Origin: Klebsiella phage vB_KaeD_HazelMika
Sequence record: OL539457.1
DNA length: 51,552 nt
Strand: one strand, 5' to 3'
Below the pieces are notes generated by a model that had not been told where the DNA came from, did not search any database, and saw only the letters and a list, made by a program, of their open reading frames with translations. Position numbers and translations under genes: made by a program. How positions within the stretch are numbered: the first letter of the stretch is position 1; the number at the start of each line of letters is the position of its first letter. Below are positions 19,825 through 49,865 of the stretch, piece by piece.

Positions 19825-19868
19825 AGTATAGCCCCATTTGCGGGGCTTGCTTTAGCAATTCGTGCGGT
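19825..19868 (-). promoter_or_regulatory. conserved module (minus): CGCACGAATTGCTAAA + 22 nt hairpin + TATACT
   Basis: The motif lacks the TAG half, reading cgCAC. Hairpin gccccgcaaatggggc, then a -10-like TATACT, then a CA-rich leader to the cor-like start. Confidence 0.5.
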
Positions 19869-20521
19869 TAGTTGTAACCCTGGAATTTCGCGTATGGTAT
19901 TTTGAGGTTTCCGCGCCCGTTAAAGATTTCAGAGAAAGAGCGCTGGTTTCTTCTGATCCAGTATGTCTGCAACTGCGATCCCGTCCAGCGCATGAGGTTG
20001 CCTGAATAACCCTGCGTTTCTCCGTCGTCGCTCCATTCACCGTAACAGGCATCCCAGAGAAAGAAGGGGTTAAAACCTGGAGTCACGGAGGCAACGTTAG
20101 CCTCAAGGTTGAATGACGGCGGAACGTCAATGAATCCCATTATTCGAGGCATTGTTGCGGCGCTAGCGGCAGTCCAAACAAGATTGCCGGAAGCGTCGAA
20201 TACGTCGAGGTAGCCGGACGCAAGCGCCTTGTTTCTCGAAGTCCTGATTATCCTGATTGCGTTAGTGCTGAACATATCCGCGCCAGGGTAGCCCCACTGG
20301 TTATTACCTGTAAACTGAATCCAGGTTAGAAAACCATCCTTGCGCTTATCACCATCGCGAAGATTGCCAAGGGCTTTAACGTCGCCAAATGGCGTGCTTA
20401 GGCTGTAAGCCCCAACGTCAATTAGCGGCTGCGGAGTGTAGACAGAATCAAAGATCGTATGCTTTTGATCGGAGTTGATCAGGACAACACCAGCGTTATT
20501 AAGTACCTCAAAGCCTGACAT
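19868..20521 (-). CDS. hypothetical protein (possibly fibre/adsorption-associated)
   Basis: 217 aa, beta-rich, shares a DASGNLV motif with the upstream 102-aa ORF. Confidence 0.45.
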   Translation of the reverse strand: MSGFEVLNNAGVVLINSDQKHTIFDSVYTPQPLIDVGAYSLSTPFGDVKALGNLRDGDKRKDGFLTWIQFTGNNQWGYPGADMFSTNAIRIIRTSRNKALASGYLDVFDASGNLVWTAASAATMPRIMGFIDVPPSFNLEANVASVTPGFNPFFLWDACYGEWSDDGETQGYSGNLMRWTGSQLQTYWIRRNQRSFSEIFNGRGNLKIPYAKFQGYN

Positions 20522-20529
20522 AAAGCCCC

Positions 20530-20838
20530 CTAGTTAAACACGTAAACTTCAATGGTAAGAGTCTGATCAACAAACGGGTTGCTTGTTGGCAGGTAAAGAA
20601 CATCAACGCCTCCGTTTTTCGTCACGGCTGCATAGCTGGCTTTATACACAGCGCCAGCAGATGCCACCATGACAACCGCGAACGAGTTGGCACCAGTCAG
20701 CCCAGCCACGTTGAAAGAAACCGCGCGAGTAGTTCGCGGGAATGATATGTTTTGCCGGACAACAAAGCGTGTGCTGAAATCGCCAAGATCGACAACCAGG
20801 TTTCCGCTTGCATCCCAGGCTTGCAGGCCAGCAGGCAT
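20530..20838 (-). CDS. hypothetical protein
   Basis: 102 aa, contains WDASGNLV. It is the first gene transcribed leftwards from the divergent control region. Confidence 0.45.
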   Translation of the reverse strand: MPAGLQAWDASGNLVVDLGDFSTRFVVRQNISFPRTTRAVSFNVAGLTGANSFAVVMVASAGAVYKASYAAVTKNGGVDVLYLPTSNPFVDQTLTIEVYVFN

Positions 20839-21278
20839 GGTGAATCCTCCATTCGTTTGATTAAGTCGAAATAATACACCAGGGCGCAGGAAGAATCAAA
20901 AATAACAGAGCGCCAGTTGTTCTATTTGTTATAGCTTGTTTCGAATTTACGCCGGACGGTGATTTGATCACTTTTTGCGCAGTGTCGCCAAGTAAGATAA
21001 TACAATAATATCTATATATAATAAGGGTTTAGTAATAATCATCATTATTATATTACTCTGTTTGTTATACTTGTTATCGTTGTTTCACTATCTTTCCGTG
21101 TATCTGCAAAAATATTACTTGAGTGTTTTGTGTGGGTATTGCGGCAGATGCAAACACACATACCCCTCCGCAGAAGGTGAAACATAGTGAACAAATAGAA
21201 CGGCGTTGATATTTAAGCATTTTTCTTGTTACACTCTAGCTATAACAAGAAATAACACTTATAACAGAATAAATAACA
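20839..21278. promoter_or_regulatory. divergent control region R1 (AT-rich, conserved blocks shared with 40532-41263)
   Basis: Contains tgtttgttatacttgttat, GTTTCAC (21082-21088) and ATACCCCTCCGCA (21160-21172), matching blocks in R2. Ends with a sigma70 promoter. Confidence 0.5.
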
Positions 21279-21306
21279 TTGACGAATCAAACCAATCGCG
21301 TATACT
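21279..21306 (+). promoter_or_regulatory. sigma70 promoter TTGACG-16-TATACT for recombination operon
   Basis: Good hexamers followed by a CA-rich leader. Confidence 0.6.
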
Positions 21307-21338
21307 CCACCACATCAACCACAAGCGAGGATTTACAG

Positions 21339-22397
21339 ATGACACCTACCAAACCGCAAGCGGATTTCTTCTGGTTCACAAACGACGAAATGCCGAACGA
21401 CTTTTATCACGATAAAGAAGCCTGGACGTTCGACTATGTTTCCGGTTCAAGCCTGGGTAAGATTCACTCATCATGCCTGGCAAAGTGGCGCTTCGAAGAG
21501 AATGAGCCAACGGCGGCGCTGGAGTTCGGCACGCAGGCGCACACCAACTTTGAAAGCAACGAGCTATTCGCATCAACCTACCGCCGCGCTCCGTTCGTTG
21601 AAGATTTCAAGGATGCGATCACGTCGCAAGCAGCATTCGCGGCTAAATTGAAAAGCTTCGGCCTGACAGGTACAAGCGGGAAGCAATATCCAGAGCTTTG
21701 CAAAATATACGCTGATTGCGGTGAAGATCTTAACGTAATGTGGATTGAAGATCTGATCGCGCAATCAAAGGCGGCGCGCGATGGCGTTGAGTTGGTAAAG
21801 GCCGAAGATTATGATGCCTGCGTTTCAATGCGTAAGGTGCTGGAGTCTATACCGGAATACGCACAACTAATGAACGATCCGGCAGCGATGCACGAGCTTT
21901 CATTGTTCGGAAAAATCAACGGCGTGAACGTCAAAGTTCGCCTGGACTACTGCGCAACAATCAGCGATCCTGAAATGATTAAGTTGCTGGGCTATAACCC
22001 AGAGATTCACCCAGAGATTGTGCTGATTCTTGACTATAAGACAACGACCAGCGCCAACCCTCACGAGTTCGATCGCAAGGCGTTTGATCTGGGCTATTAC
22101 TTGAAGATGGCTTTGCAGCGTGATTTGTTTGTCAAGGTGTTTGAAGAAACGCGCCCCGTCGCAGTTGTCCTACTAACCCAGGAAAAGAAAGCGCCATTCT
22201 TGCCTCTGGCTCGACCAATGACGAAAGAGCAGATCATTCACGGGCGCAAGCAGTACATGAGCGTTATTCACCAGTACGAGATCAGCAGCCGTGATGACGT
22301 TTGGCCTTCATACGCAAACGGCGCTCCATTCGTTCACCTGCAAACGCCGGATTACATCAAGCGCCAACATCCTGATATTTACGGCGAAAACAAATAG
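21339..22397 (+). CDS. PD-(D/E)XK recombination exonuclease (RecE/exoVIII-like)
   Basis: 352 aa with RBS GAGG before the ATG at 21339. Carries an ILDYKT nuclease-type motif and lies upstream of erf and ssb. The track start at 21279 is a TTG artefact inside the promoter. Confidence 0.55.
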   Translation: MTPTKPQADFFWFTNDEMPNDFYHDKEAWTFDYVSGSSLGKIHSSCLAKWRFEENEPTAALEFGTQAHTNFESNELFASTYRRAPFVEDFKDAITSQAAFAAKLKSFGLTGTSGKQYPELCKIYADCGEDLNVMWIEDLIAQSKAARDGVELVKAEDYDACVSMRKVLESIPEYAQLMNDPAAMHELSLFGKINGVNVKVRLDYCATISDPEMIKLLGYNPEIHPEIVLILDYKTTTSANPHEFDRKAFDLGYYLKMALQRDLFVKVFEETRPVAVVLLTQEKKAPFLPLARPMTKEQIIHGRKQYMSVIHQYEISSRDDVWPSYANGAPFVHLQTPDYIKRQHPDIYGENK

Positions 22398-22437
22398 CAC
22401 TAAAAGCTAAAAAAAAAGAGGCTCATACGGTATAATG
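22392..22437 (+). promoter_or_regulatory. conserved module: AAATAGCACTAAAAGCTAAAAA + hairpin containing TATAAT
   Basis: The hairpin gaggctcat/atgagcctc encloses TATAAT in its loop. It precedes erf. Confidence 0.5.
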
Positions 22438-22465: not shown

Positions 22466-23149
22466 ATGAAAATGCGCACATCAGAAACTTTTTCCACGGT
22501 AGCGAAGGCGCTCATTGCGGCGAAGGCTGATTTTGCACTTGCCAGAAAGTCTGGGCATAACAAACACCTGGGCAACAACTACGCCAACCTTGATGACGTG
22601 TTAGAGGCGATCACTCCGTCAATGAAAGAAAATAAATTGATGGTTATTCAATCAACGCTAGATCGCAGCACTGAAAAGTTGATGTACATCGAAACGATGA
22701 TTCTCCACGAGTCCGGCGAGTTTATGGCGTTTGAATACCAGATGCCGATCGAAGGTACGAAGGCGCAGCAGTACGGATCAACAACGTCATACGGTCGCCG
22801 CTATGCACTTTGTGCAGTGCTGGGAATTAGCCAGGCAGATGACGACGCAGAAATTGCAAAACGCACCGCGTCTGATTACAAAAAGCTGGTTGAAGCCTGC
22901 ACCGATCTTGAAAAACTTAGCACTATTCACCAGGACGCACGAAGCAAGTTGAGCGCGGCGGAATGGAAGATTGCGGAAGGTCACTTGCAGAAGCGTAAGG
23001 CAGAATTGACGGCGGGCGAGCGCCGAGGATTCCCAGGAAACACGCAGAAGAAGGATCAGCAGACGGAGCCGCAGCCAGAAAAACAAGAGCCTAGCCAACC
23101 AGAGAAAAAGGTTGTAAACTCCGGTTCTGAAATCGAAAACTTCGGTTAA
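22466..23149 (+). CDS. erf: Erf-family single-strand annealing protein
   Basis: 227 aa with P22 Erf-like N-terminal features and a low-complexity acidic/Q-rich tail. Sits between the exonuclease and SSB. Confidence 0.6.
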   Translation: MKMRTSETFSTVAKALIAAKADFALARKSGHNKHLGNNYANLDDVLEAITPSMKENKLMVIQSTLDRSTEKLMYIETMILHESGEFMAFEYQMPIEGTKAQQYGSTTSYGRRYALCAVLGISQADDDAEIAKRTASDYKKLVEACTDLEKLSTIHQDARSKLSAAEWKIAEGHLQKRKAELTAGERRGFPGNTQKKDQQTEPQPEKQEPSQPEKKVVNSGSEIENFG

Positions 23150-23698: not shown

Positions 23699-26114
23699 AT
23701 TCCTCTTCACAACCTGTTTCGTGTGCCTTGCTCCATGCTTGCTGGGCGGCGTAGCTTGCAACATCCCTTTCCATTTTGTCGATCTCCTTGTTGTAAATGC
23801 TATCCTCTGGCATTTGCACGCGAACACTAACGAAAGTGTCGCTAGGGATATCGATAGGATCGCCATTCGAATAACCATCAATGTTATTCTGTGCAAACTT
23901 AGGCGCGCTTTCATGCGTGCGATGGTAAGTCTTGAGGACTAAGCTACCGTCAAAATCAACAGAGTAATCAACCCACAAAAGCGGCTGTTTGTTGATATCA
24001 ACAGGAATCTCAATACCACCACTAACTCCACCCCAGGCAAGATCCGCATTCAGGCCAATGCAACCATAAATCTTATAAACGCCAACATCAATGCGTTCAA
24101 CGGTGCAACCTTCCGATTCTTCGTTAGTCTCAAACGAAGAGGCCATAACCTTGATGACTGGTGATGCACGCTTGATAAACCCGTTAGCGTCAACAGTTGT
24201 GTTCTTAGTTCCCCACAAAGCGTTAACCTGAACCGTACCAGAGTTTACGCCACCATTGTTACCACCAGATACATAAAGGTTTGCGTTTCGGTAATCAACA
24301 GTAATCATTCCAAAACAGTCACCAGCATTCATGTAAAAGTTGGCGTTATACTGGTAATTAGCGCCACCAGTATTGATAGGCTGATCGTTTCGAATAACCC
24401 TAGAACCGCCAGAATCACGCATACCTCGAATCCATGACACAAGGTTGCCATCATTGATAGTTTTCCCTGTGCCAATAACCATTGCGTTATTGGCGCCCTC
24501 AATAATGATGCGGTCGGAATATGTAAGGTTCCCATTGTTGTTCAACTGCAACGCCTTGCCAGACTGAGTGTTAGTGAAATAAACATCTGCACCACCAACG
24601 CCAATATATGCGGTTTGCGAATAGTCAGGGCGAGACATTGTGATCCCATAAGTGATGGTAGGGCTAACAGAAGTTACAACCTCTTTCCACGGATTATAGT
24701 TGCCGTTGTTCATGTTTCTGAACATCAACCTACCACCGCTTGAGTAAGATCCCGCAAGCTGGAATTTGTAGTTATTACCCTGCGTACAGTTGAAGTTAAG
24801 CACACCCAGGAATTGACCATTACCAATGCCGAAAGGAGCGCCAACGTAATCGCCATTCACAGTGTAAAACCCGTTCGCAAGTCCAGTGCTTGAGCCTTCC
24901 TCAGTGCTATTAATAAGGCCGGAGCTTGTGCTTAAACCCAAACCGAATTTATCGATCTCAAGATTGGTTCTTGCCCCAGCCGCATCCTTTGCACCAGTGC
25001 CGCCAGCATTAAGCCCAAGAGCCAGATACCCTGAAATATCAGTATTCCAACACCCCCAAACGCCATTTTTAACAGATAAGTAAGTTTTACCATCTGGGCT
25101 GTACATGATTGTTTCAAGGCCAGTTTGAAGAATTTTATCAATCTGTAAATTCTGCCTTGCGGTTGTCATGTTCGCCACGTCAGAAAGGTTATTGGCCTTT
25201 TTCAACTGATTGTCAGGGTTGGCAGTAGCAGCCCGATCCGCTTCCGTTTTTGCCCGATCCGCTTGCTGAGTTGCCGTGGTAGCCGAAGCTGCCGCAGCGG
25301 TTTTGCTTGATGCCGCATTAGTCTCTGACGTTTTGGCGTTTGTCTCAGATGTTTTCGCCGCCGTCGCTGAGGTCGCCGCCGCGCTTGCAGATCCAGCCGC
25401 CGCAGTTTGTGAAGCCGCCGCAGCAACCTTGCTGGAGTTAGCGTTAGTCTCTGACGTTTTGGCGTTAGTCTCTGACGTTTTAGCAGCAGTTGCAGATCCA
25501 GAAGCCGCACTTGCTGAACCAGCCGCCGCAGTTGCAGAAGATGCAGCCGCAGTCTGCGAGTTCTTAGCCGCAGTTTCAGAAGCTTTGGCGTTAGTCTCCG
25601 AGGTCTTAGCCGCCGTCTGTGATGCCGCCGCCGCCGTCTGTGATGCCTTAGCCGCATTCTCTGACGCTTTCGAGTTGGTTTCAGAGGTTTTGGCGTTGGT
25701 CGCAGCGGTGCTGGCTGTTTGCGCGTCTGCCTTAACCTGGTTGCCAACTGCAACGATACGCTCCCAATCGAAATTCTGGAAAAACTCGATCGCATCTTCG
25801 ATTACGGTTTCTTTGCTTTGGTAGTAACGTAGCGTTTCCGCCACATCCTGCGCCAGCCCGTCAACTGTGATGGAATCGTGCAACAAGATCACATACTTCG
25901 TGCCAGCCGCCACAACTGCGCCATCCGTAGCAGTTGCCCGCATTTCGGTTGGGCTAACGATTGATGAGATAGTGCAGATCGTTAGCGGTGCAGTTTGAAA
26001 AATCATGGTTGCGCCAACTCGAACAAGAGAAAGCTTATCCTGCCAGTTGGTTCCAACCCCCACAATAACGCCCTGGGCATTTAGCGAGGCTGTTCCCGTT
26101 CTGTAAATAGCCAT
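23697..26114 (-). CDS. side tail fibre protein
   Basis: About 805 aa. RBS GAAGGG lies 8 nt before the ATG at 26114. It has an Ala/Thr/Ser-rich repeat region (KTSETNA units) and a beta-rich Gly/Asn-rich C-terminal domain. Confidence 0.7.
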   Translation of the reverse strand: MAIYRTGTASLNAQGVIVGVGTNWQDKLSLVRVGATMIFQTAPLTICTISSIVSPTEMRATATDGAVVAAGTKYVILLHDSITVDGLAQDVAETLRYYQSKETVIEDAIEFFQNFDWERIVAVGNQVKADAQTASTAATNAKTSETNSKASENAAKASQTAAAASQTAAKTSETNAKASETAAKNSQTAAASSATAAAGSASAASGSATAAKTSETNAKTSETNANSSKVAAAASQTAAAGSASAAATSATAAKTSETNAKTSETNAASSKTAAAASATTATQQADRAKTEADRAATANPDNQLKKANNLSDVANMTTARQNLQIDKILQTGLETIMYSPDGKTYLSVKNGVWGCWNTDISGYLALGLNAGGTGAKDAAGARTNLEIDKFGLGLSTSSGLINSTEEGSSTGLANGFYTVNGDYVGAPFGIGNGQFLGVLNFNCTQGNNYKFQLAGSYSSGGRLMFRNMNNGNYNPWKEVVTSVSPTITYGITMSRPDYSQTAYIGVGGADVYFTNTQSGKALQLNNNGNLTYSDRIIIEGANNAMVIGTGKTINDGNLVSWIRGMRDSGGSRVIRNDQPINTGGANYQYNANFYMNAGDCFGMITVDYRNANLYVSGGNNGGVNSGTVQVNALWGTKNTTVDANGFIKRASPVIKVMASSFETNEESEGCTVERIDVGVYKIYGCIGLNADLAWGGVSGGIEIPVDINKQPLLWVDYSVDFDGSLVLKTYHRTHESAPKFAQNNIDGYSNGDPIDIPSDTFVSVRVQMPEDSIYNKEIDKMERDVASYAAQQAWSKAHETGCEEE
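25290..25560 (-). repeat. tandem intragenic repeats in fibre gene (about 123-nt unit x2 with 18-21-nt subrepeats)
   Basis: Direct DNA repeats such as gttagtctctgacgttttggc x2. The protein repeat SATAAKTSETNAKTSETNA..SSK.AAAAS occurs twice. These repeats generate the spurious antisense ORFs. Confidence 0.7.
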
Positions 26115-26137: not shown

Positions 26138-26155
26138 ATAGCACGAATTGCTAAA
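26138..26155 (+). promoter_or_regulatory. TAGCACGAATTGCTAAA palindrome copy upstream of fibre gene start
   Basis: Full consensus copy about 25 nt upstream of the minus-strand fibre ATG. On the fibre strand it reads GTGCTATTAA, abutting a -10-like hexamer. Confidence 0.5.
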
Positions 26156-26181
26156 TGCCATTGTAGCAATGTTTCAGGCAC

Positions 26182-27160: not shown

Positions 27161-27194
27161 AATAAAAAAGGTTGCACCGATTATGGCACAACCT
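27161..27194 (-). terminator. stem-loop + T-run (minus strand) after HTH gene
   Basis: aggttgtgccataatcggtgcaacct followed by T7 on the minus strand. Confidence 0.5.
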
Positions 27195-27199
27195 CTGGC

Positions 27200-27676
27200 T
27201 TATTCTTTAGCTTTTAGTGCTGCCTCACGCTCGCGCTTAATCCGTTTCCATGATGGTTGTTCCGGCTTGTGGGCTAACTCATCCTCACGAACCACACGCA
27301 TCATTTCACGCTTTTTGCATCGCACTGTTAATGGCTTGCCGTTGCCGTCGAAGGTGAGATCTGGTCGGCACCATGTAGCGCGAAAGCCCTTAGCCCCATT
27401 TCGCTTATATGCGTTGTGCGCCTTCTGCGCCCCGCGCGCGGAAATCATGCCGTTTTTAATCCAGGTGGTGAGCAGTGAGTTTGAGATCTTCAACTCACGG
27501 CAAACGTTGGCCTTCGAGCCGTAAAACTCGATAAGCATTTCAAGGCGGGCACGCAATCCGGCCTTTACTTCATCTTTCAGAACGTAGTAGCCTGTAGGCC
27601 GCTTGCGCTTCTTCTTGTCTGCGCCGCGCTGAGTTCCGTTGTTCCCGTTAATGGTTCTCTTGTCAACTTCAATCAT
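27200..27676 (-). CDS. HTH DNA-binding protein (putative transcriptional regulator)
   Basis: 158 aa, very basic, with a helix-turn-helix-like segment ANVCRELKISNSLLTTWIKNG. RBS GGGGGA. The conserved palindrome lies 11 nt upstream of its start codon. Confidence 0.5.
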   Translation of the reverse strand: MIEVDKRTINGNNGTQRGADKKKRKRPTGYYVLKDEVKAGLRARLEMLIEFYGSKANVCRELKISNSLLTTWIKNGMISARGAQKAHNAYKRNGAKGFRATWCRPDLTFDGNGKPLTVRCKKREMMRVVREDELAHKPEQPSWKRIKREREAALKAKE

Positions 27677-27686
27677 AAATCCCCCG

Positions 27687-27729
27687 ATAGCACTTTTTGT
27701 TAAACATTCTATTCGATAGCGTGTATTAT
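27687..27729 (+). promoter_or_regulatory. conserved module: ATAGCACTTTTTGTTAAAC + 21 nt + TATTAT
   Basis: Precedes the helicase and overlaps the divergent 5' UTR of the HTH gene. Confidence 0.5.
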
Positions 27730-27767
27730 AGCCGTAATCGAACGAACCTCAAAGGCATTTAATCACC

Positions 27768-29843: not shown

Positions 29844-30259
29844 TCACCGATAAAGGCGAATATCTTGAGTATTACCAGGCCAACCCCCTGGACACGTGGA
29901 AAGAGGAAAAACACCAGGTTGATTGCGTGGCATGGCTGCGCTATCACTACCCGAACCTTTTATTCTGGCACACAGTCAACGAAGGGAAAAAGCATATCAA
30001 TTCCGCCCTTCGTGATGAGCAGGCGGGTCTAAAAAAGGGCGTAAGCGACTTCGTAATCCTGATTGGTCATAACGATCGCAAGTACGCATTTGCGGCGATT
30101 GAGTTGAAGAGAACCAACAAGAGCGGCAAGGCCAAAGCATCGCCAGTTAGCAAAGAGCAGAAAGCTTTCTTGCTTGACGTGCGCGAGCGCGGAGGATTCG
30201 CGGCGGTTGCATACGGTCTGGATCAGTTTAAATTAGCGATCGAAGATATGTTGAAATAG
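29840..30259 (+). CDS. VRR-NUC domain nuclease
   Basis: 139 aa with a PD-(D/E)XK-type motif SDFVILIG..AIELKR. Overlaps the helicase stop. Confidence 0.55.
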   Translation: MITDKGEYLEYYQANPLDTWKEEKHQVDCVAWLRYHYPNLLFWHTVNEGKKHINSALRDEQAGLKKGVSDFVILIGHNDRKYAFAAIELKRTNKSGKAKASPVSKEQKAFLLDVRERGGFAAVAYGLDQFKLAIEDMLK

Positions 30260-30299
30260 CACGAATTGCTAAACACGTGCCGGAGCAATCCTGCATAAT
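30254..30299 (+). promoter_or_regulatory. conserved module: AAATAGCACGAATTGCTAAAC + 22 nt hairpin (GCAA loop) + CATAAT
   Basis: The TAG inside the motif is the stop of the VRR-NUC gene. Precedes dam. Confidence 0.55.
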
Positions 30300-31059: not shown

Positions 31060-31290
31060 ATGCAAGATCGCAACGTTAGACTGAATGAGATCGGCCTGAA
31101 ATGTTTGTTTGTTGGCCTTGTTTGCGCACAGCTTGAAATTGCTGGATTCACTGGAGATGCCTTCAAGCTGGCAAACTCTCTTGATATGAGCTTTGAAGAG
31201 ATAGCGCCGAAGGATATCATTGAATGGGGCGCGCTAATCGCCAAAGACCTTGAAGAGTTCAAGGCTGAAAACCCCGAAGAGTTCGAATAG
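31060..31290 (+). CDS. hypothetical protein
   Basis: 76 aa, acidic. Ends at the TAG inside the next module. Confidence 0.4.
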   Translation: MQDRNVRLNEIGLKCLFVGLVCAQLEIAGFTGDAFKLANSLDMSFEEIAPKDIIEWGALIAKDLEEFKAENPEEFE

Positions 31291-31330
31291 CACTAATTGC
31301 TAAACATACCCGCCTCCGTGCGGGTATACT
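31286..31330 (+). promoter_or_regulatory. conserved module: AATAGCACTAATTGCTAAAC + 22 nt hairpin + TATACT
   Basis: Hairpin acccgcctccgtgcgggt. Confidence 0.55.
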
Positions 31331-33329: not shown

Positions 33330-33356
33330 ACAATTGCCGGAGTAATCCGGCATACT
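33311..33356 (+). promoter_or_regulatory. conserved module: AAATAGCACGAAAAGCTAAAC + 22 nt hairpin (GTAA loop) + CATACT
   Basis: Contains the TAA stop of the upstream gene. Followed by a CA-rich leader. Confidence 0.55.
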
Positions 33357-33717: not shown

Positions 33718-33730
33718 TGCTTCTAGTTTG

Positions 33731-33749
33731 TCAAAAAGTGCTGTATTAT
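33731..33749 (+). promoter_or_regulatory. reversed palindrome half-motif abutting -10 (CAAAAAGTGCTGTATTAT) before lysis cassette
   Basis: Same arrangement as at the major-capsid promoter (GTGC followed by TATTAT). Confidence 0.4.
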
Positions 33750-34917: not shown

Positions 34918-34931
34918 CGGCTCCTTTTTTT
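34905..34931. terminator. bidirectional terminator
   Basis: aggagcctaacggctcct followed by T7, at a convergent junction. Confidence 0.7.
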
Positions 34932-37066: not shown

Positions 37067-37110
37067 AATGTACCGGAACCATGATACAGACGTTATGCAA
37101 AAAGTGCTAT
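37067..37110 (-). promoter_or_regulatory. conserved module (minus): ATAGCACTTTTTGCAT + 22 nt hairpin + TACATT
   Basis: Precedes the DUF3987 gene. The spacer contains the hairpin ggttccggtacattagccggaacc. Confidence 0.5.
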
Positions 37111-37566: not shown

Positions 37567-37610
37567 AATATAACAAAACCCGCCGAAGCGGGTTTAACAA
37601 AAAGTGCTAT
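37567..37610 (-). promoter_or_regulatory. conserved module (minus): ATAGCACTTTTTGTTAAA + 22 nt terminator-like hairpin (cccgcTTCGgcggg) + TATATT
   Basis: The hairpin is identical to the one at window positions 8-21. Confidence 0.55.
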
Positions 37611-39367: not shown

Positions 39368-39411
39368 ATTATGACAAATCACACCGGATCAGTTTTAACA
39401 AAAAGTGCTAT
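39368..39411 (-). promoter_or_regulatory. conserved module (minus): ATAGCACTTTTTGTTAAAAC + 22 nt + CATAAT
   Basis: Followed by the leader gctttcacaccaaccaaacaagg. Confidence 0.55.
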
Positions 39412-39969: not shown

Positions 39970-40014
39970 ATAATAACAAAAGCACGAACCGCCGTTTTAG
40001 CAATTCGTGCTATT
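39970..40014 (-). promoter_or_regulatory. conserved module (minus): AATAGCACGAATTGCTAAAAC + 22 nt + TATTAT
   Basis: Full consensus motif. Confidence 0.55.
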
Positions 40015-40547: not shown

Positions 40548-40593
40548 ATAGTAACCCATCGCCCCTGATCGGTTTTAGCAAAAAGTGCTATTT
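40548..40593 (-). promoter_or_regulatory. conserved module (minus): ATAGCACTTTTTGCTAAAAC + 22 nt + TACTAT
   Basis: Spacer hairpin cgatcaggggcgatgggt. Confidence 0.55.
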
Positions 40594-40793: not shown

Positions 40794-41203
40794 CATTTTT
40801 TTCGCACCGCACTTTTTGCGCTTGTTATTGTTGTTACCCTGTGTTTCAATTTCACGCCCTCCGTGGAATCCGAAACGGAATAGTTGTTAATTAACAAAAA
40901 TAACACTATATCCCTTTATAGTAAGTAATTAATATATATAGGTTTTTTATATTATATAAATATTGTTGTTATAGATTGTTCTATGTGTTTCACCATTCAC
41001 GGGAGATATGTATACATTTTCCGAAAGGAATGGGCATATGATATTGCGCTTCCATTTGGACGGCGTGACGTAGGTATACATATACCCCTCCGCAAATAGC
41101 GGAACAAGGGCAACATCCGATAACATTCGTCGCTAACAAGCGGTGCGCCTGCTCTCGCCTCGCGAAAAGTGTTATAAGGCCGATTATTAACAGCGGGTAA
41201 CAG

Positions 41204-41232
41204 TTGACAACAACCGCGCCACCAGGCACAAT
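41204..41232 (+). promoter_or_regulatory. sigma70 promoter TTGACA-17-CACAAT (rightward early promoter)
   Basis: Consensus -35 with a 17-nt spacer. The track ORF start at 41204 is a TTG artefact. Confidence 0.6.
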
Positions 41233-41977: not shown

Positions 41978-42193
41978 ATGAACAATTATCGAGTAGTGCA
42001 CATCAAAGAGTATGATGCGGAAGGTTATACGAGCGCCTCATATTACGCGGTTGAGCGTAGGGTGCGATTCATCCCCTGGCTCTGGCGACACGTCAAGTTC
42101 TACGATCGCAGTGAAGAGGCTTTCTTCCACAAGTCAAGGCTGGACAGGGTGAAGGGTAAGCGAAAAGAGCGAATCATCATCAGCAACGAATAG
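41978..42193 (+). CDS. hypothetical protein (paralog of previous gene)
   Basis: 71 aa with a YAVERRVRFIPW..HKSR pattern. Confidence 0.45.
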   Translation: MNNYRVVHIKEYDAEGYTSASYYAVERRVRFIPWLWRHVKFYDRSEEAFFHKSRLDRVKGKRKERIIISNE

Positions 42194-42233
42194 CACGAAT
42201 TGCTAAACATTAGCCGGAGCAATCCGGCATAAT
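42189..42233 (+). promoter_or_regulatory. conserved module: AATAGCACGAATTGCTAAAC + 22 nt hairpin + CATAAT
   Basis: The extended hairpin cattagccggaGCAAtccggcataatg pairs the -10 hexamer into the stem. Confidence 0.55.
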
Positions 42234-42265: not shown

Positions 42266-42712
42266 ATGAGCAACCAGGCAAAGGCAATCAAACTTATCGC
42301 ACGCATCGAATCTGCAAACCGTTACATCTTCTCTGGCAACTATGATGCCGATGAGCTTGCAAAGGCAACAGCCGATCGTAATGCGATGGTTGCCGAATAT
42401 CTGGATCTGATTGACAGCATCGCCAAAGAAAACGAAATGGTAGATTTTGCAGAGCAGGTGGCAAAGGTTGCCGAAGATGATGGCGTGCAACTCCGTTACG
42501 CGGCTTTCATGGTTTCAACGTGTGACCGTTCAGTCAAAGGCCGTGGTGCTGAGTTCATGTCGTTTATCTCTGATGTCAAGGCTCTTTACATGCGAGCGCA
42601 TCCAGAGCAAATCTATTGCGGCGGTCACATTGGTTGTCATGACCATTTCACAAGCTACATCATTTCGGGCGAATGGCTTGAGGCAACGCGAGCGGTTCAT
42701 GCGGCAAAATAG
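42266..42712 (+). CDS. hypothetical protein
   Basis: 148 aa with RBS GAGG. Confidence 0.45.
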   Translation: MSNQAKAIKLIARIESANRYIFSGNYDADELAKATADRNAMVAEYLDLIDSIAKENEMVDFAEQVAKVAEDDGVQLRYAAFMVSTCDRSVKGRGAEFMSFISDVKALYMRAHPEQIYCGGHIGCHDHFTSYIISGEWLEATRAVHAAK

Positions 42713-42752
42713 CACGAATAGCTAAAACCACAATCAGGGGATATGCCATAAT
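42707..42752 (+). promoter_or_regulatory. conserved module: AAATAGCACGAATAGCTAAAAC + 22 nt hairpin + CATAAT
   Basis: A ggggatatgc/atagcccc stem with the -10 in the loop. Confidence 0.55.
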
Positions 42753-43077: not shown

Positions 43078-43388
43078 TGAAAAGGTTTAAAATACTGGCT
43101 CCGATTGCACTACTGACAGCGCTTGCGCTCACTGGCTGCGATGATTCAACCAGGGTTCCCCGTGAGCAGCGAGGAAAAGTGCAGGTCACAACGGCAGAAT
43201 CAGGCCGCGTACAGGTGCGCAAAATCAGTGAATTTCGCGATGACCTGGCTTATGACGATTATCGCGGCGTGTACATCATCACGGACACCGAAACGGGGCA
43301 AGAGTTCATCGGCGTTAGCGGCGTGGGCATCAGCGCGATCGGGCAGCACAATTGCGGTAAAAGTTGCTGGCGGAAAGACGAACGATAG
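43077..43388 (+). CDS. lipoprotein
   Basis: 103 aa with signal peptide and lipobox LTGC. Confidence 0.5.
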   Translation: MKRFKILAPIALLTALALTGCDDSTRVPREQRGKVQVTTAESGRVQVRKISEFRDDLAYDDYRGVYIITDTETGQEFIGVSGVGISAIGQHNCGKSCWRKDER

Positions 43389-43428
43389 CACTTTTTGTTA
43401 AAACGGATGCGCTCTGATTGGTTATGAT
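43385..43428 (+). promoter_or_regulatory. conserved module: ATAGCACTTTTTGTTAAAAC + 22 nt hairpin + TATGAT
   Basis: An atgcgc/gcgcat stem encloses TGATTGGTTATGAT. Confidence 0.55.
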
Positions 43429-44276: not shown

Positions 44277-44395
44277 GCAAGCTTGAAACAATCATCGTCG
44301 TAACTGCTGGGCTGGCGCTGGCTTGTCTCATCGTCGAGCAACTAATTTACACGGCGTTAGCGATCCGGCAGCGCAACAAAGACAAAAAGCACTAA
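44273..44395 (+). CDS. small membrane protein (40 aa)
   Basis: MSKLETIIVVTAGLALACLIVEQLIYTALAIRQRNKDKKH, ATGA-coupled. Its stop codon sits at the start of the next module. Confidence 0.35.
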   Translation: MSKLETIIVVTAGLALACLIVEQLIYTALAIRQRNKDKKH

Positions 44396-44429
44396 TTGCT
44401 AAAACGGGATGCGCTCTGAGTGGTATCAT
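44385..44429 (+). promoter_or_regulatory. conserved module: AAAAGCACTAATTGCTAAAAC + 22 nt + TATCAT
   Basis: Contains TGAGTGGTATCAT, an extended -10-like element. Confidence 0.55.
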
Positions 44430-45061: not shown

Positions 45062-45141
45062 ATGAGCCTGGAAAGTTCGCAATCGGTATTTTGATTTGGC
45101 TTGCGGCGATCTTCTGGCTTGCGTGCATTATTGCCGGATAG
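45058..45141 (+). CDS. micro-ORF, 27-aa hydrophobic peptide (putative)
   Basis: MNEPGKFAIGILIWLAAIFWLACIIAG, ATGA-coupled. Its stop is the TAG of the next module. Confidence 0.3.
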   Translation: MNEPGKFAIGILIWLAAIFWLACIIAG

Positions 45142-45181
45142 CACTTTTTGTTAAAACTTCCGCAAGGCCATTTGATATAGT
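45138..45181 (+). promoter_or_regulatory. conserved module: ATAGCACTTTTTGTTAAAAC + 22 nt hairpin + TATAGT
   Basis: An aaggcca/tggcctt stem encloses the -10. Confidence 0.55.
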
Positions 45182-45835: not shown

Positions 45836-46021
45836 ATGCAGATTTACAAATCACCAGGCGGCGCGCGTTACGTTGTGATAAACGGCTTCGTGTACTGCAA
45901 GCCAGTTGAGGGAATGGTTTTCCTTTCCTCGATGAGCGTTGAGCGATTTCTTGCTCTTATCGCTGGTGGCCTGCTTACTTTTGAAAAGCTGATACCGCCA
46001 ATCATTCTGAAAAAGCACTAA
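45836..46021 (+). CDS. hypothetical protein
   Basis: 61 aa. Confidence 0.35.
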   Translation: MQIYKSPGGARYVVINGFVYCKPVEGMVFLSSMSVERFLALIAGGLLTFEKLIPPIILKKH

Positions 46022-46055
46022 TTGCTAAAACTTGCCCAGGGGCATTTGATAGAAT
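46011..46055 (+). promoter_or_regulatory. conserved module: AAAAGCACTAATTGCTAAAAC + 22 nt hairpin + TAGAAT
   Basis: A ggcat/atgcc stem. Confidence 0.5.
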
Positions 46056-46095: not shown

Positions 46096-46692
46096 ATGAC
46101 TATCCAACGATACAGGCCGAAACTGGCAGGCGAAGGCCGCAACAAGCGCGCCGTAATGACCACTGACACGCACGGCGTGTATGTAACCCACGCATCACAT
46201 CAGGAAGAAATGGACCGCTTAAAACGCGAATTAGACGCCTTAAAAGACGGCTTAAAACGTCAAATTTTTGCGCCGCTTGAAAAAGCCATGATGAATGCGC
46301 TTATTAAAACGGCGATGCAGGCAACGCAGACCGTCTACACCGTCAACCCATGCGACAAGCTGACTTCCGAGCGCGTGCGTGAAATTATGGATGCGCAGAT
46401 CGGATGCGGAGTGATTCAGATCAGTGAGGAGTTGAGCAACGCCGAATCAGGATTCATGACGCGCCACGTTTTAGCCATGCCTGAGCCGAAAGTGCTGTTG
46501 TGCATCAAGTCAGAAGCGACCAGCTTTGTTGCTGGAAATCGGTACGAATACGAAATGAAAGACGGCGCTTTGTTCGTTGCGCAAGATGAATTCGTTTCCG
46601 ATCTTCATGAAGAGGATTTCTGGCACGTAACGGACGGCGGCGCGTATTACATCGTTGAAACGGTGGCGGGTAACGCGTACTTTAAGAAATAG
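46096..46692 (+). CDS. hypothetical protein
   Basis: 198 aa with RBS GCGAGG. Confidence 0.45.
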   Translation: MTIQRYRPKLAGEGRNKRAVMTTDTHGVYVTHASHQEEMDRLKRELDALKDGLKRQIFAPLEKAMMNALIKTAMQATQTVYTVNPCDKLTSERVREIMDAQIGCGVIQISEELSNAESGFMTRHVLAMPEPKVLLCIKSEATSFVAGNRYEYEMKDGALFVAQDEFVSDLHEEDFWHVTDGGAYYIVETVAGNAYFKK

Positions 46693-46732
46693 CACTTTTT
46701 GTTAAGCGGAATCGTGCGCTGATTGGTATGAT
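46687..46732 (+). promoter_or_regulatory. conserved module: AAATAGCACTTTTTGTTAAG + 22 nt hairpin + TATGAT
   Basis: An 8-bp stem gcggaatc/gattccgc encloses TGATTGGTATGAT. Confidence 0.55.
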
Positions 46733-48149: not shown

Positions 48150-48193
48150 ATAGCACGAATTGCTAAACCCGCTCCGGCGGGTTTTGTTATAGT
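48149..48193 (+). promoter_or_regulatory. conserved module: AAATAGCACGAATTGCTAAAC + 22 nt terminator-like hairpin + TATAGT
   Basis: Hairpin cccgctccggcggg followed by TTTTGT. Confidence 0.55.
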
Positions 48194-48224
48194 TACTCCA
48201 CACCAAACAACAGAGGCATTAACC

Positions 48225-48515: not shown

Positions 48516-48622
48516 AAAGGCCAACATTCCACGAAGCAATGATTATTGCTTTACTTATGCTTACGAGCGCGGCGGCATTACGCGCAATCTTATTCTTCGC
48601 ATTCATACAGGGCGCAAAATGA
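48512..48622 (+). CDS. micro-ORF, 36-aa membrane peptide (putative)
   Basis: MKRPTFHEAMIIALLMLTSAAALRAILFFAFIQGAK, with an ATGA overlap at both ends. Confidence 0.3.
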   Translation: MKRPTFHEAMIIALLMLTSAAALRAILFFAFIQGAK

Positions 48623-48783
48623 AAACTTTCCTGATCTTCATGGCTGGCTCAATCATGCTAGCAGCAACAACCGAAGGCGTAACGCCGTTAATCGCAGGCG
48701 GCCTTATCGCCTGGGCTTATTACCGCTGCGGGCACGATGACGGATTCAAGGCCGGAAAGCGAAACATCTTAACTGGCAAATAG
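48619..48783 (+). CDS. small membrane protein (54 aa)
   Basis: MKTFLIFMAGSIMLAATTEGVTPLIAGGLIAWAYY..., ATGA-coupled. The alternative is the 93-aa track ORF 48502-48783 in the same frame. Confidence 0.35.
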   Translation: MKTFLIFMAGSIMLAATTEGVTPLIAGGLIAWAYYRCGHDDGFKAGKRNILTGK

Positions 48784-48823
48784 CACGATTTGTTAAAAGG
48801 GCATTCATCCTGATTGGTATGAT
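48778..48823 (+). promoter_or_regulatory. conserved module: AAATAGCACGATTTGTTAAAAG + 22 nt hairpin + TATGAT
   Basis: A gggcat/atgccc stem encloses TGATTGGTATGAT. Confidence 0.55.
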
Positions 48824-48853
48824 GCCCACATCAACCACACAGAGGAATAAATA

Positions 48854-49315
48854 ATGAAACAATTTGCAATTTGTACTCACTCCATATCACGTGCTTTCGT
48901 TGTTGGCGAAGCGTATGAAATCGAGCCGAAAAAAGGCGGTCGCGGCTTTCACGTTGGCGGAAACTTTACGGGCTACGCATACGATAGCAAAACCCCTGAT
49001 TTAATCGACGTGCGCGGCGTTAACAGGACTATTGCCAGCTTCAATAAGGGAATCGCACGCAAGAAAAAAAGCCTTCTCAAAATGCTTGTGCGTGCGCATG
49101 TGGTGTATGCAAAATCGCGCGGCTGGGGAGATAGCAAAAACGGCGCTCATAAATCCTGGAGCGCCACTTGGTACAAGAGCGCTAACGATTGGGCGCGTTG
49201 CTTCGCCTTGGGCTATGATATCGAAGCCATTGAGCTTGAGGCGGCAGAGGAAGGGGTTAAAGTCGATCAGGAGTATCTTAACTGGTTCGTTGATGAGCAG
49301 ATGAGTTATTATTGA
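48854..49315 (+). CDS. hypothetical protein
   Basis: 153 aa with RBS AGAGGAAT. Confidence 0.45.
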   Translation: MKQFAICTHSISRAFVVGEAYEIEPKKGGRGFHVGGNFTGYAYDSKTPDLIDVRGVNRTIASFNKGIARKKKSLLKMLVRAHVVYAKSRGWGDSKNGAHKSWSATWYKSANDWARCFALGYDIEAIELEAAEEGVKVDQEYLNWFVDEQMSYY

Positions 49316-49340
49316 TTGCTGGCGCGAAGTCCTGCATAAT
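49312..49340 (+). promoter_or_regulatory. sigma70-like promoter TTGATT-17-CATAAT
   Basis: Conventional 17-nt spacing with no palindrome motif. The spacer and -10 lie in a hairpin gcggggc. Confidence 0.45.
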
Positions 49341-49386
49341 GCGGGGCTTCATTCAAGCAACCACAAACAAATCAGAGGAAATCACC

Positions 49387-49821
49387 ATGAAATTACGTTG
49401 CCTTTTTGTCTCAACCTCACTGTATTCAGCCGTAGCCTCTCGCATGTTTGATATTGGCTCGGAGTACCTGGGAGCACGCCGCAAGGGTAGCTCAATTGAT
49501 GCTTTCGATATAGTTGTTGAAGATCCTGTGTTTAAGGGGAAAACCTTCGTGCTAACCGGATATGAAAACAAAGAAACTGGAAACGTCGATATACTCACAG
49601 AGGCTGGAGTGATCGCCAGCTTCACGAAGCCTAAGCAATCTCGCCTGGTTAAGTCAGAAAAGCGAGTGCCACACAAAGCAGACGGCACAGGGCAAACTGA
49701 CAAGCGCCGATTCCGCCGCGTTTGCCGCCAGTATTGCAAGCTACGCTTCATCAATCCTGCGTTTACGTGCCCAGAGTCACACCGCCAAATGCAAAAGCTG
49801 GCGCGCTTCCACCGCCGATAA
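49387..49821 (+). CDS. hypothetical protein (possible signal peptide)
   Basis: 144 aa with RBS CAGAGGAAAT and a hydrophobic N-terminus. Confidence 0.45.
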   Translation: MKLRCLFVSTSLYSAVASRMFDIGSEYLGARRKGSSIDAFDIVVEDPVFKGKTFVLTGYENKETGNVDILTEAGVIASFTKPKQSRLVKSEKRVPHKADGTGQTDKRRFRRVCRQYCKLRFINPAFTCPESHRQMQKLARFHRR

Positions 49822-49865
49822 ATAGCACGAATTGCTAAAACAAGCCTGGGGTAAGCTGTTATAGT
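49820..49865 (+). promoter_or_regulatory. conserved module: AAATAGCACGAATTGCTAAAAC + 22 nt hairpin + TATAGT
   Basis: A ggggtaa/ttacccc stem encloses the -10. Confidence 0.55.

Follow-up and report, generated by a model that had tools for sequence, protein, structure and literature searches.

What reads the short module that recurs in front of gene starts in Klebsiella phage vB_KaeD_HazelMika (OL539457.1), and to what end? We analysed a stretch of 51,552 nt of this T1-family phage (the window), which shares about 98% identity with Escherichia phage vB_EcoS_NBD2 (Drexlerviridae). A first-pass annotation had described a TAGCA-N5-TGCTA palindrome followed at a fixed distance by a -10-like hexamer.

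Composition and layout of the modules

We found 22 TAGCA-N5-TGCTA sites with at most one mismatch in the window, against 1.2 expected (100 dinucleotide shuffles, maximum 5). Twenty-two modules are co-oriented with the gene that they precede, 15 on the plus strand and seven on the minus strand, and 19825–49865 is the exact span between the outermost ones. All 21 modules previously listed before gene starts were recovered. The order of elements is a box of 20 bp, 18 bp, the -10 hexamer, an A at +1, a CA-rich leader, a Shine–Dalgarno sequence and the ATG, which lies 66–86 nt from the start of the box (median of about 75 in the 22 modules). They are the following.

19825–19868, minus strand: gene start 19793; box ACCGCACGAATTGCTAAAGC, 18 nt, TATACT; both hairpin arms within the spacer
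22394–22437, plus strand: Erf-like gene (ATG 22466/22472); the box TAG closes a 372-aa exonuclease ORF; hairpin arms on either side of the -10 (z = -7.5)
27180–27223, minus strand: primase gene (ATG 27145), added here; box GCAGCACTAAAAGCTAAAGA, 18 nt, TGc-CATAAT; box inside the 3' end of gp53; -10 within a terminator hairpin (12 bp, T-run), in its loop
27687–27730, plus strand: helicase gene (ATG 27768); box in the gp53 5' leader, transcribed divergently; -10 complementary to TATAAT in the gp53 promoter
30256–30299, plus strand: Dam methylase gene (ATG 30330); the box TAG closes the upstream ORF
31287–31330, plus strand: gene start 31362; box includes GCACTAATTGCTAAA, 15/15 against the published consensus marbox
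33313–33356, plus strand: gene start 33387; a TAA within the box (GCTAAA) closes a 383-aa exonuclease ORF
37067–37110, minus strand: second helicase gene (ATG 37040); degenerate module, ATAGCACTTTTTGCATAACG, 18 nt, TACATT; hairpin arms flank the -10; orthologous modules in LF82-40 and T1
37567–37610, minus strand: gene start 37530; -10 is TGt-TATATT; spacer hairpin cccgcTTCGgcggg plus TTTTGT, terminator-like
39368–39411, minus strand: gene start 39337
39970–40013, minus strand: gene start 39932
40548–40591, minus strand: gene start 40519; first unit of the leftward cluster
42190–42233, plus strand: gene start 42260/42266
42709–42752, plus strand: gene start 42781
43385–43428, plus strand: gene start 43459
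44386–44429, plus strand: gene start 44457; box core 15/15 against the consensus marbox
45138–45181, plus strand: gene start 45224
46012–46055, plus strand: gene start 46096; box core 15/15 against the consensus marbox
46689–46732, plus strand: gene start 46757
48150–48193, plus strand: gene start 48225; spacer hairpin plus TTTTGT, terminator-like
48780–48823, plus strand: gene start 48854
49822–49865, plus strand: gene start 49898

The 22nd module, before the primase gene (box 27223–27204, minus strand), was absent from the earlier list. Nearby, gp53, a conserved helix-turn-helix (HTH) protein, adjoins a box in a switch-like divergent promoter, a point that weighs against a host reader.

The spacing is fixed in general: the -10 hexamer stands 22 nt after TTGCTA or TTGTTA, i.e. 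18 nt past the end of the box. A single exception had been claimed, at 27687, but 22394 is another, and both have a better hexamer 1 nt closer than in the other units. The information profile revealed a conserved A 7 nt past the hexamer and bore out the common downstream leader. Moreover, 13 of the 22 units have a TGn extended -10, a feature previously missed. The -35 is poor: the sole resemblance, and the only -35-like hexamer picked by the promoter scanner, is TAAACA at the 3' end of the box. The scan showed no enrichment of ordinary sigma70 promoters (22 found where 20.6 were expected, and 15 where 16.0 were). As first described, the modules form a compact, cassette-like layout, and upstream genes tend to end in the next module: the stop codon of the upstream ORF falls within or touches the box in about 15 of the 22 units, and in 10 the TAG at box positions 2–4 terminates an ORF of 45 codons or more.

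Hairpins had been reported in nearly every spacer. They are real on average, since the 46-nt segment folds with a mean of -12.2 kcal/mol compared with -7.8 for random genome windows (mean z = -3.1 relative to shuffles), but this folding test gave none for the units at 44386 and 40013. The hairpin of the Dam module is conserved, being 100% paired in eight orthologues (at most 45% in slid registers), with compensatory changes in two of five pairs and G-U pairs that are valid on the sense strand only. Its covariation score is 0.64 versus 0.33, a value reached by none of 500 shuffles.

The same box occurs in about 20 copies in each of T1 and LF82-40. This presence in T1-like relatives, which the first-pass annotation had proposed to check, rules out a recent selfish repeat. 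The repeat itself is not new, as it was published for TLS in 2024: German et al. (PMC11447400) described "18 intergenic 21-nt repeats aaATAGCACnnnTTGnTAAAA" of unknown function in TLS, reported the repeat also in T1, Rtp and Rogue1, and suggested stoperators, enhancer sites or UP elements.

Box sequence and the marbox

The consensus of the 20-bp box is A-T-A-G-C-A-C-N4-T-G-Y-T-A-A-A-A/C-C. The E. coli marbox AYNGCACNNWNNRYYAAAYN has nine exact matches in the window, compared with 0.03 expected from shuffles, and 26 with at most one mismatch, compared with 1.0. The consensus GCAHWWWWTGYYAAA (PMC6900184) has 10 exact matches against 0.13, and the ChIP-seq consensus gcactaattgctaaa (PMC5684230) has 15 with at most two mismatches against 0.14 expected; three copies match it at 15 of 15 positions. 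Phage lambda, a natural control, has no marbox match, while T1, LF82-40 and NBD2 have 21–25.

A palindromic operator for a dimeric protein is not the best description of the box. In 49 aligned modules from three phages, symmetric partners are missing for A1 and C7 (left) and for A17-A18 (right). The left half is invariant, the right half degenerates (TGCTA/TGTTA/AGCTA), and 22 of the 26 box copies are oriented with transcription. This is the pattern of the E. coli marbox, bound by monomers of the host stress regulators MarA, SoxS or Rob, a likeness that the first-pass annotation had not drawn. The variation of the box tracks marbox degeneracy, since positions 8–12 are N/W and positions 13–15 are R-Y-Y (GCT, GTT), whereas GCAC and AAA are fixed. 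The phage consensus is tighter than that of the marbox: position 3 is always A and position 2 almost always T. A different reader could account for this, as could the role of TAG as a stop. At the sequence level, the box is a near-consensus marbox.

As it also lies at the right distance from the -10, the phage probably borrows host activators for its promoters. We thus lean, with some reserve, towards host MarA/SoxS/Rob as activators of the modules, read as class II promoters with an extended -10. The earlier interpretation survives in part: a dedicated protein recognition site near -41/-42 of -10 promoters, the geometry of class II activators, is supported, while the palindromic dimer operator is not.

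Three to four further boxes, reverse or otherwise placed, had not been noted before. In addition to one at 33725–33744, they are:

6080–6107, plus strand: major-capsid promoter (TTGACC, 16 nt, TGc-TATTAT), whose entire spacer is occupied by the reverse box 6085–6104 (box on the minus strand), an arrangement also present in LF82-40 and T1
26138–26157, plus strand: box, reverse relative to the minus-strand tail-fibre gene; the complement gives TGc-TATTAA about 25 nt before the ATG; equivalents in T1 (34902) and LF82-40 (23007)
15806–15825: forward box directly on the ribosome-binding site (RBS) of the large tail gene, and so unable to serve that gene as a promoter element

From the two reverse positions we predict repression of the strong capsid promoter and of the tail-fibre promoter. 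The host offers a precedent, as pbpG is repressed by MarA and SoxS via a marbox in the promoter spacer (PMC12052159; a section heading of that paper credits the repression to MarA, SoxS and Rob).

Candidate readers of the box

The box might instead be the operator of a phage-encoded regulator, which we regard as unlikely. The obvious candidate is gp53:

27200–27676, minus strand: gp53 ('transcriptional regulator'), Cro-like with a single HTH

Conserved in 824 Drexlerviridae records, gp53 is the one clear DNA-binding regulator of the phage and has a confident structure model (pLDDT 88.5) whose top fold matches are Cro-like but weak (best E 0.09, none at or below 0.001). In this scheme, gp53 would be made first, from a good box-free sigma70-type promoter of its own (TTGAGG at 27752–27747, 16 nt, TATAAT at 27730–27725). 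It would then activate the 22 modules from about -41, control its own expression via the box that lies at about +10 to +30 in its leader, and repress both the capsid promoter and that of the tail fibre. The 5-bp inverted repeat TAGCA/TGCTA, with half-sites 10 bp apart, suits such an operator, and the box-free sigma70-like promoters in both large non-coding regions make a cascade possible. However, the consensus has unequal half-sites, lacks symmetry and keeps a strict orientation, and the recognition helix of gp53 (residues 66–71) is among its least conserved parts (NSLLTT in the window, LQVVYE in LF82-40, NQTVQG in T1) in phages whose box does not vary. It is also very unlikely that a phage operator would equal the host marbox by chance in orientation and 18-bp spacing, given a consensus of about 22 bits and 0.03 matches expected, and a factor present throughout infection leaves the late relief of the capsid promoter unexplained. 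The first-pass annotation had put forward gp53 and the product of 32178–33329 for binding tests. The latter is the conserved 'DNA repair exonuclease', whose HTH hits all stay sub-threshold, and neither makes a good candidate. A phage AraC/XylS protein was found neither by Pfam over the 64 ORFs of the window nor by tblastn with MarA and SoxS.

It is also rather unlikely that the box is read by RNA polymerase itself, at a UP-element-like alpha-CTD site, by a small phage protein comparable to MotA/AsiA of T4, or as a 'stoperator', i.e. a roadblock attenuating read-through. The TLS authors proposed ideas of this kind, the phage has many small ORFs without known function, the boxes are intergenic and co-oriented with transcription, as are L5 stoperators, and the box on the tail-gene RBS has no promoter role for that gene. 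Yet GCAC, the invariant core, does not suit a UP element, which consists of A/T only, and the MotA box is centred at -30, not at -41. The annotations of NBD2 and T1 and the Pfam scan of the 64 ORFs gave no repressor, integrase or lysogeny module, and the fixed 18 bp to a -10 with TGn, together with the conserved +1, point to initiation rather than a roadblock. Finally, the modules could be mainly substrates of recombination or mobility (PeSL-like shuffling junctions or a selfish repeat) with no dedicated binding protein. The cassette-like layout with stops inside the box, the small variable genes between modules and the varying gene content upstream of dam among relatives would fit. We nevertheless find this very improbable, as the window, LF82-40 and T1 share orthologous module positions in front of the helicase, dam, erf and capsid genes at an identity of only about 75%, T1 being further removed again. 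Furthermore, flanks and hairpin stems have diverged, with compensation, around an unchanging box, which keeps a strict geometry with respect to the -10 and +1. Recombination at these sites may still take place as a side effect.

Host activators and known marbox promoters

In the reading that we favour, activation by host MarA/SoxS/Rob, each module would be a composite boundary between transcription units. The box would be read by these AraC/XylS-type proteins as monomers (and by RamA in Klebsiella). A forward box at about -50 to -31 would overlap a non-functional -35 and end 18 bp before the -10, with the conserved A as the presumed start site; the literature yielded no study of transcription start sites for any T1-like phage. 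The activator would touch sigma70 region 4 and the alpha-CTD, replacing the -35 contact. Some 22 early and middle promoters would thus be served by host RNA polymerase aided by the pre-existing pool of MarA/SoxS/Rob, of which Rob is the constitutive member. The G+C-rich hairpins sit where alone the module is sequence-free, in the 18-bp spacer or in spacer plus discriminator, and would act in RNA read through from the upstream gene, which often ends inside the box, presumably as weak or strong terminators or 3'-end stabilisers. At the reverse boxes, the same factor would repress late genes while it is available.

Such reliance of a virulent phage on MarA/SoxS/Rob for about 22 promoters is unexpected, because unstressed cells contain little MarA and SoxS, and Rob is described as largely sequestered (PMC5684230). 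The extended -10 may make many module promoters activator-independent. Resistance to T1 is classically described as arising at the receptor, and with three redundant activators a phenotype of any one regulator would be masked.

In class II marbox promoters, a forward site overlaps the -35 with its centre at about -41 (PMC6900184). We measured E. coli K-12 micF as ACAGCACTGAATGTCAAAAC, 18 bp and TAGAAT, with the annotated 5' end 8 nt past the hexamer, and fumC as ATGGCACGAAAGACCAAACA, 18 bp and ATAATA. The phage modules resemble both of these class II promoters, with equal orientation and the same distance of 18 bp from the box to the -10.

Putative promoter modules of the early and middle region

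Between positions 26000 and 34000, the window is 98-99% identical to Klebsiella phage vB_KM5a1_KLB19 and Escherichia phage vB_EcoS_NBD2 (Drexlerviridae, Vilniusvirus). We used the NBD2 annotation to draw a gene map. It places the structural genes at 1-19430, and the replication, recombination and lysis genes, together with many small genes of unknown function, in the region that carries the repeated modules. We found 22 matches to TAGCA-N5-TGCTA with at most one mismatch, when 1.2 are expected. The first-pass annotation had described a repeated unit before 21 gene starts, and the aligned copies bear this out at every one of them: a box, a constant gap, a -10-like hexamer, a CA-rich leader, a Shine-Dalgarno sequence and the ATG. 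One of these copies is degenerate, and we identified an additional module before the primase gene:

Degenerate module before the gene start at 37040: ATAGCACTTTTTGCATAACG, 18 nt, TACATT
22nd module, before the primase gene: box within the 3' end of the gene of the Cro-like protein gp53, with a strong terminator hairpin whose loop holds CATAAT

The box starts 66-86 nt before the ATG (median approx. 75), and its distance to the hexamer is 18 bp in 20 of the 22 modules and 17 bp in the other two. The upstream gene often terminates inside the module, as noted previously, with an ORF ending within the box or abutting it in about 15 of the 22 units. The profile built from the modules of the window, LF82-40 and T1 reads aAATAGCAC...TTGyTAAAac, followed by a conserved tG.TAtaaT. 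On the 3' side of the hexamer it shows a conserved cA, whose A lies exactly 7 nt past the hexamer, and then cAAc.aa. The extended -10 element TGn is present in 13 modules. The conservation of tG.TAtaaT and of the A at 7 nt suggests that these are promoters with an extended -10 and a predicted +1 at this A.

Part of this was already known. In phage TLS, 21-nt intergenic direct repeats with the consensus aaATAGCACnnnTTGnTAAAA occur approximately 76 nt 5' of start codons, along the direction of transcription, with A, T and G subtypes of the central bases; the authors note that T1, Rtp and Rogue1 carry them as well (German et al. 2024, PMC11447400). They found just three sigma70-like intergenic promoters in TLS, speculated that the repeats are stoperators, enhancers or UP elements, and listed their function as an open question; MarA, SoxS, Rob and the marbox are not mentioned (PMC11447400). 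The TLS repeat is the same element as our box, with which it shares the consensus, the intergenic position and the co-orientation. A check of other T1-like genomes, suggested at the first pass, recovered 17-23 copies of the box, identically arranged, in T1 and in LF82-40. The repeat itself, as an observation, is thus already known: the initial description is correct, yet previously published. In contrast with the present analysis, the TLS paper does not include the fixed distance to the -10 and TGn, the reverse copies in late promoters or the covariation of the hairpins. We found no transcription start or transcriptome study of Drexlerviridae in the literature searched.

The window also has two large AT-rich non-coding regions (20880-21290 and 40800-41215) at points of divergent transcription. 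They are paralogous, contain internal repeats and have in common the blocks CTTGTTnT..TTGTTA, GTGTTTCA and ATACCCCTCCGCA. They contain box-free sigma70-like promoters (for example TTGACA-17-CACAAT at 41204 and TTGACG-16-TATACT at 21279) and are candidate immediate-early promoter or origin regions. The only Rfam match in the window is a tRNA gene at 51038-51122 (RF00005, 50.6 bits), the counterpart of a tRNA-Ser in the NBD2 and LF82-40 annotations.

Identity of the box and its possible readers

We compared the box with the marbox, the site of the host regulators MarA, SoxS and Rob. The 20-mer A-TAGCAC-NNNN-TG(C/T)TA-AA(A/C)N agrees with the E. coli marbox consensus at each position. The window has 9 exact matches to AYNGCACNNWNNRYYAAAYN and 26 with at most one mismatch (0.03 and 1.0 in shuffled sequences), and 10 exact matches to GCAHWWWWTGYYAAA, a consensus from PMC6900184 (0.13 expected). 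The marbox consensus derived from ChIP-seq, gcactaattgctaaa (Sharma et al. 2017, PMC5684230), is matched at 15 of 15 positions by three modules (31287, 44386 and 46012), and with at most two mismatches by 15 sites, when 0.14 are expected. At one mismatch, the 20-mer gives 21-25 matches in T1, LF82-40 and NBD2. Phage lambda, used as a control, had no marbox matches. The variants that break the palindrome (TTGTTA, AAGCTA, TAGCTA, and GAAT, TTTT or TAAT at the centre) do so exactly at the positions where the marbox is degenerate (N, W, R-Y-Y). The positions that do not vary are GCAC and AAA, the elements that MarA contacts with its pair of helix-turn-helix (HTH) motifs. The conserved C7 and the flanking A's lack symmetric partners, and the left half is invariant when the right half is not. 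This asymmetry and the orientation of the copies, 22 out of 26 of which point towards the gene, indicate an oriented site, as for a monomeric reader.

The geometry of the modules is also that of known targets of these regulators. In class II marbox promoters, a forward box (GCAC distal and AAA proximal to the promoter) overlaps the -35 with its centre near -41; in micF it is CACT-7N-AAA, read towards the gene. We measured two of these promoters in E. coli K-12. In micF, ACAGCACTGAATGTCAAAAC is followed by 18 bp and TAGAAT, the annotated 5' end being 8 nt past the hexamer. In fumC, ATGGCACGAAAGACCAAACA is followed by 18 bp and ATAATA, and the published start puts the centre of the 15-mer at -39. 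In the phage modules, 18 bp separate box and hexamer, and the 15-mer is centred at -40 from the conserved A (the predicted start). All 22 have GCAC...AAA towards the gene, and the box ends at about -31. The sole -35-like hexamer is TAAACA, which is the box's own 3' end, and canonical sigma70 promoters are not enriched in the module region. Forward orientation, overlap with the -35 and distance to the -10 are therefore those of the known members (18-19 bp; centre at approx. -41), the phage start being a predicted one. We left out inaA as a third comparison (its box is approx. 26 nt from the -10), as well as the genome-wide marbox count of a 2025 PLoS Genetics study, which is not comparable with the counts made here. 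Judged by its sequence, the box qualifies as an asymmetric consensus site of class II marbox type. We found no link between marboxes and phage promoters in the literature searched, including by a search with sequence strings, and the marbox identity of the box is new as far as this literature shows.

The first-pass annotation had interpreted the palindrome as an operator placed near -42, where class II activators bind, and had proposed phage proteins as its readers. The activator site stands in outline, but a palindrome read by a phage protein does not fit an asymmetric and oriented box. A dimeric operator of the Cro/cI type would be palindromic, and here only the inner 5 bp are symmetric: the conserved A1, C7 and A17-18 face bases that are not complementary, the left half does not vary and the right one is degenerate, and 22 of 26 copies are co-oriented where orientation independence is expected. 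The recognition helix of a cognate phage HTH protein is expected to be conserved along with the operator, and residues 66-71 of gp53 are not. The UP element suggested for TLS is an A/T-rich site at -40 to -60 bound by alpha-CTD, whereas the invariant GCAC and TG(C/T) of the box are not A/T-rich. In an ordinary sigma70 promoter TTGCTA would be the -35; the 22-nt spacer is incompatible with this, and no hexamer is conserved 17 nt downstream. In mycobacteriophage L5, which is temperate and encodes the repressor, stoperators are asymmetric binding sites of that repressor that run in the direction of transcription; the box, too, is asymmetric and co-oriented. We saw no repressor or integrase in the annotations of NBD2 and T1 or in a Pfam scan of 64 ORFs of the window, and the fixed spacing between box and -10 argues for a role in initiation.

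If the box is a marbox, its reader could be encoded by the phage. The Pfam scan of the 64 ORFs revealed no AraC/XylS domain (HTH_18/AraC), and no tblastn match of MarA or SoxS to the window fell below E = 3, which speaks against a phage-encoded MarA-like activator. The only evident regulator is gp53, annotated as a transcriptional regulator (27200-27676, minus strand), of which 824 phage records carry a homologue (protein search, Drexlerviridae). Its AlphaFold model (pLDDT 88.5) has one Cro-like HTH and extra segments, with Xfaso-1 and N15 Cro as its top PDB matches (weak by E-value). As modelled, with a single Cro-like HTH, gp53 is unlikely to be a MarA-like protein with two HTH motifs. The start of its recognition helix (residues 66-71) reads NSLLTT, LQVVYE and NQTVQG in three phages sharing the invariant box, and varies widely across 57 homologues in which other segments are nearly invariant. 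A protein of the Cro/cI type that reads an invariant 20-bp site would not be expected to have a variable recognition helix. Hence, gp53 is not the expected reader of the box. The most conserved parts of gp53 lie outside the HTH: a basic N-terminal DKRTxNGNNGTxRGxDKKxRKRP and a C-terminal GFRAxxCRPDLxFDxNGK.

We prefer the host proteins MarA, SoxS and Rob (RamA in Klebsiella) as the putative readers, with slightly better than even confidence, because they recognise precisely this sequence and are conserved among the bacteria that these phages infect. The 824 matches to gp53 provide no clean out-group of homologues in phages whose hosts lack MarA or Rob: all are T1-like phages with enterobacteria as listed hosts, except for 20 'Campylobacter phage' records. 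The latter have the look of T1-like coliphages for which Campylobacter was entered as the host. The homologue in one of those listed (e.g. the A120 record) is approximately 63% identical to gp53, the same as the coliphage matches.

The promoter of gp53 is box-free (TTGAGG-16-TATAAT, with the TATAAT at 27730-27725 on the minus strand). It lies back to back with the helicase promoter and overlaps it (27677-27767), such that the TATAAT of gp53 complements the ATTATA of the helicase module and the helicase box falls within the gp53 leader, at about +10 to +30. This arrangement looks like a small genetic switch, and is compatible with either a host factor or gp53 as the reader.

Spacer hairpins and box copies outside the modules

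The segment from the end of the box to just past the -10 folds beyond chance (mean z of -3.1; -12.2 versus -7.8 kcal/mol). Some hairpins have both arms within the 18-nt spacer, while others have one arm in the spacer and one in the discriminator, leaving the -10 in the loop. The module of dam has a 5-bp stem that extends to the -10's first base and pairs at 100% in eight distinct orthologues, two pairs showing double (compensatory) changes. Its covariation score is 0.64 versus 0.33, a value reached by none of 500 shuffles, in a small sample of approximately 3-4 lineages; pairing in slid registers is at most 45%. Several of the pairs are G-U, so that pairing occurs on the sense strand only, which points to a structure selected in the sense RNA. 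Such a hairpin would act in read-through transcripts of the upstream gene. Intrinsic terminators combine a G+C-rich stem-loop with a U-tract immediately after it on the sense strand, and a scan for terminators was passed by five modules:

27196-27167: module hairpin passing the terminator scan
31306-31327: module hairpin passing the terminator scan
37595-37576: module hairpin passing the terminator scan
40011-39981: module hairpin passing the terminator scan
48165-48184: module hairpin passing the terminator scan

The remaining hairpins are followed just by a U-rich -10 (CAUAAU, UAUAGU) or by the CA-rich leader. The GenBank record of T1 annotates the orthologous hairpins as rho-independent terminators. 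We infer that they serve as terminators or 3' stabilisers, fitted into the only stretches of the promoter that are free of constraint, and that the U-rich -10 also serves as a poor U-tract.

Some copies of the box lie elsewhere, in forward or in reverse orientation relative to the gene:

Major-capsid promoter, near-consensus (A-tract, TTGACC, 16 bp, TGc-TATTAT): window 6080-6107; LF82-40 approx. 3020-3050; T1 approx. 15062-15092
Tail-fibre reverse box, 3' of the primase terminator, gene on the minus strand: window 26138-26157 (plus strand); T1 34902-34921; LF82-40 23007-23026
Forward box that stops 2 nt short of the ATG of the J-like large tail gene: window 15806-15825; LF82-40 12706-12725; T1 25021-25040
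Reverse box ACAGCACTTTTTGACAAACT with one mismatch, 3' of a terminator and approx. 55 nt upstream of the holin start (approx. 33798): window 33725-33744 (minus strand)

The capsid promoter has the same organisation in the window, LF82-40 and T1 (TTGAC(C/G), 16 bp, TGc-TATTAT), and its spacer is the reverse box. The complement of the tail-fibre box yields an extended -10-like TGc-TATT(A/T)A (TGcTATTAA in the window), approximately 25 nt before the ATG. At pbpG, MarA and SoxS repress through a marbox located in the spacer, and the heading of the paper adds Rob to them (PMC12052159). The likeness is that the marbox overlaps the promoter spacer there and that, in the three phages, the reverse box takes up the entire 16-bp spacer in front of the capsid gene. 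Repression from a marbox in the core promoter also takes place at rob, purA and hdeA. Our analysis leads to the prediction that the same factor activates the early and middle units and represses the late promoters of capsid and tail fibre. In the window, LF82-40 and T1 alike, the box of the J-like gene overlaps the ribosome-binding site. This box is excluded as a promoter element of the gene itself, and might be a roadblock or a translational feature. We saw no equivalent of the reverse box upstream of the holin gene in LF82-40 or T1.

A possible timer and comparison with known systems

The predicted activation and repression by one factor suggest, speculatively, a timer based on the decay or titration of this factor. 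We regard it as possible, though improbable, that T1-family phages run their temporal programme on the mar/sox/rob activators of the host, without a phage-encoded regulator. The pre-existing pool of MarA, SoxS and Rob would turn on the approximately 22 early and middle promoters through their consensus class II marboxes, and would keep the strong capsid and tail-fibre promoters off through reverse boxes in the promoter cores. When host synthesis stops, the short-lived MarA and SoxS would decay, and hundreds of replicated genomes with some 25 high-affinity sites each would titrate Rob. Early promoters would then fade and late promoters be released.

If such a timer exists, infection efficiency would be coupled to host stress signals (bile salts, salicylate, redox drugs, antibiotics). 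If the boxes are read by host regulators of stress and antibiotic resistance, most promoters of a large family of virulent enterobacterial phages would hinge on these proteins. Among the 824 Drexlerviridae records from the gp53 search alone are many phages of Klebsiella and E. coli that are candidates for therapy. Inducers of mar/sox/rob (salicylate, bile, paraquat, some antibiotics) should then alter phage yield, and so should the marR and ramR resistance mutations common in clinical isolates, with a bearing on phage-antibiotic combinations. Phage genomes would also be strong sinks for MarA, SoxS and Rob during infection. As a practical by-product, the modules offer a compact collection, supplied by nature, of putative promoters with near-consensus marboxes and probable built-in terminators. 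The marbox identification makes the question of the function of the repeat directly testable.

Two phage systems resemble the modules. In the PeSL cassettes of T4-type phages, a promoter and a stem-loop are repeated between small genes in a modular, shufflable layout. The analogy, made at the first pass, comes from this layout, not from the sequences: PeSL cassettes have ordinary strong sigma70 early promoters, whereas the modules have a putative activator box at -41 and the stem-loop within the promoter. The middle promoters of T4 have a MotA box centred at -30, read by the phage protein MotA with AsiA. They are likewise a phage-wide class with a conserved upstream activator box, no -35 and a -10 often preceded by TGn. 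However, the box of the window is centred at about -41 and equals a host site, and our Pfam scan found no MotA/AsiA-like protein in the window.

The modules also resemble the class II MarA/SoxS/Rob promoters of E. coli (micF, fumC, lpxC P2, lpxL P1 and rfaY P1). They share the same asymmetric 20-bp box in forward orientation, overlapping a poor -35, 18 bp from the -10 and centred at about -40/-41. The resemblance extends in fumC to the fumA terminator on its 5' side, which makes it also a terminator-marbox-promoter unit. The host sites are scattered and degenerate members of a regulon, whereas the phage has 22 near-consensus copies within 30 kb of a virulent genome. Furthermore, the phage modules differ from the E. 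coli promoters in having the upstream gene's stop codon inside the box, a hairpin that is built into the 18-bp spacer or surrounds the -10, a frequent extended -10 and a conserved initial transcribed leader.
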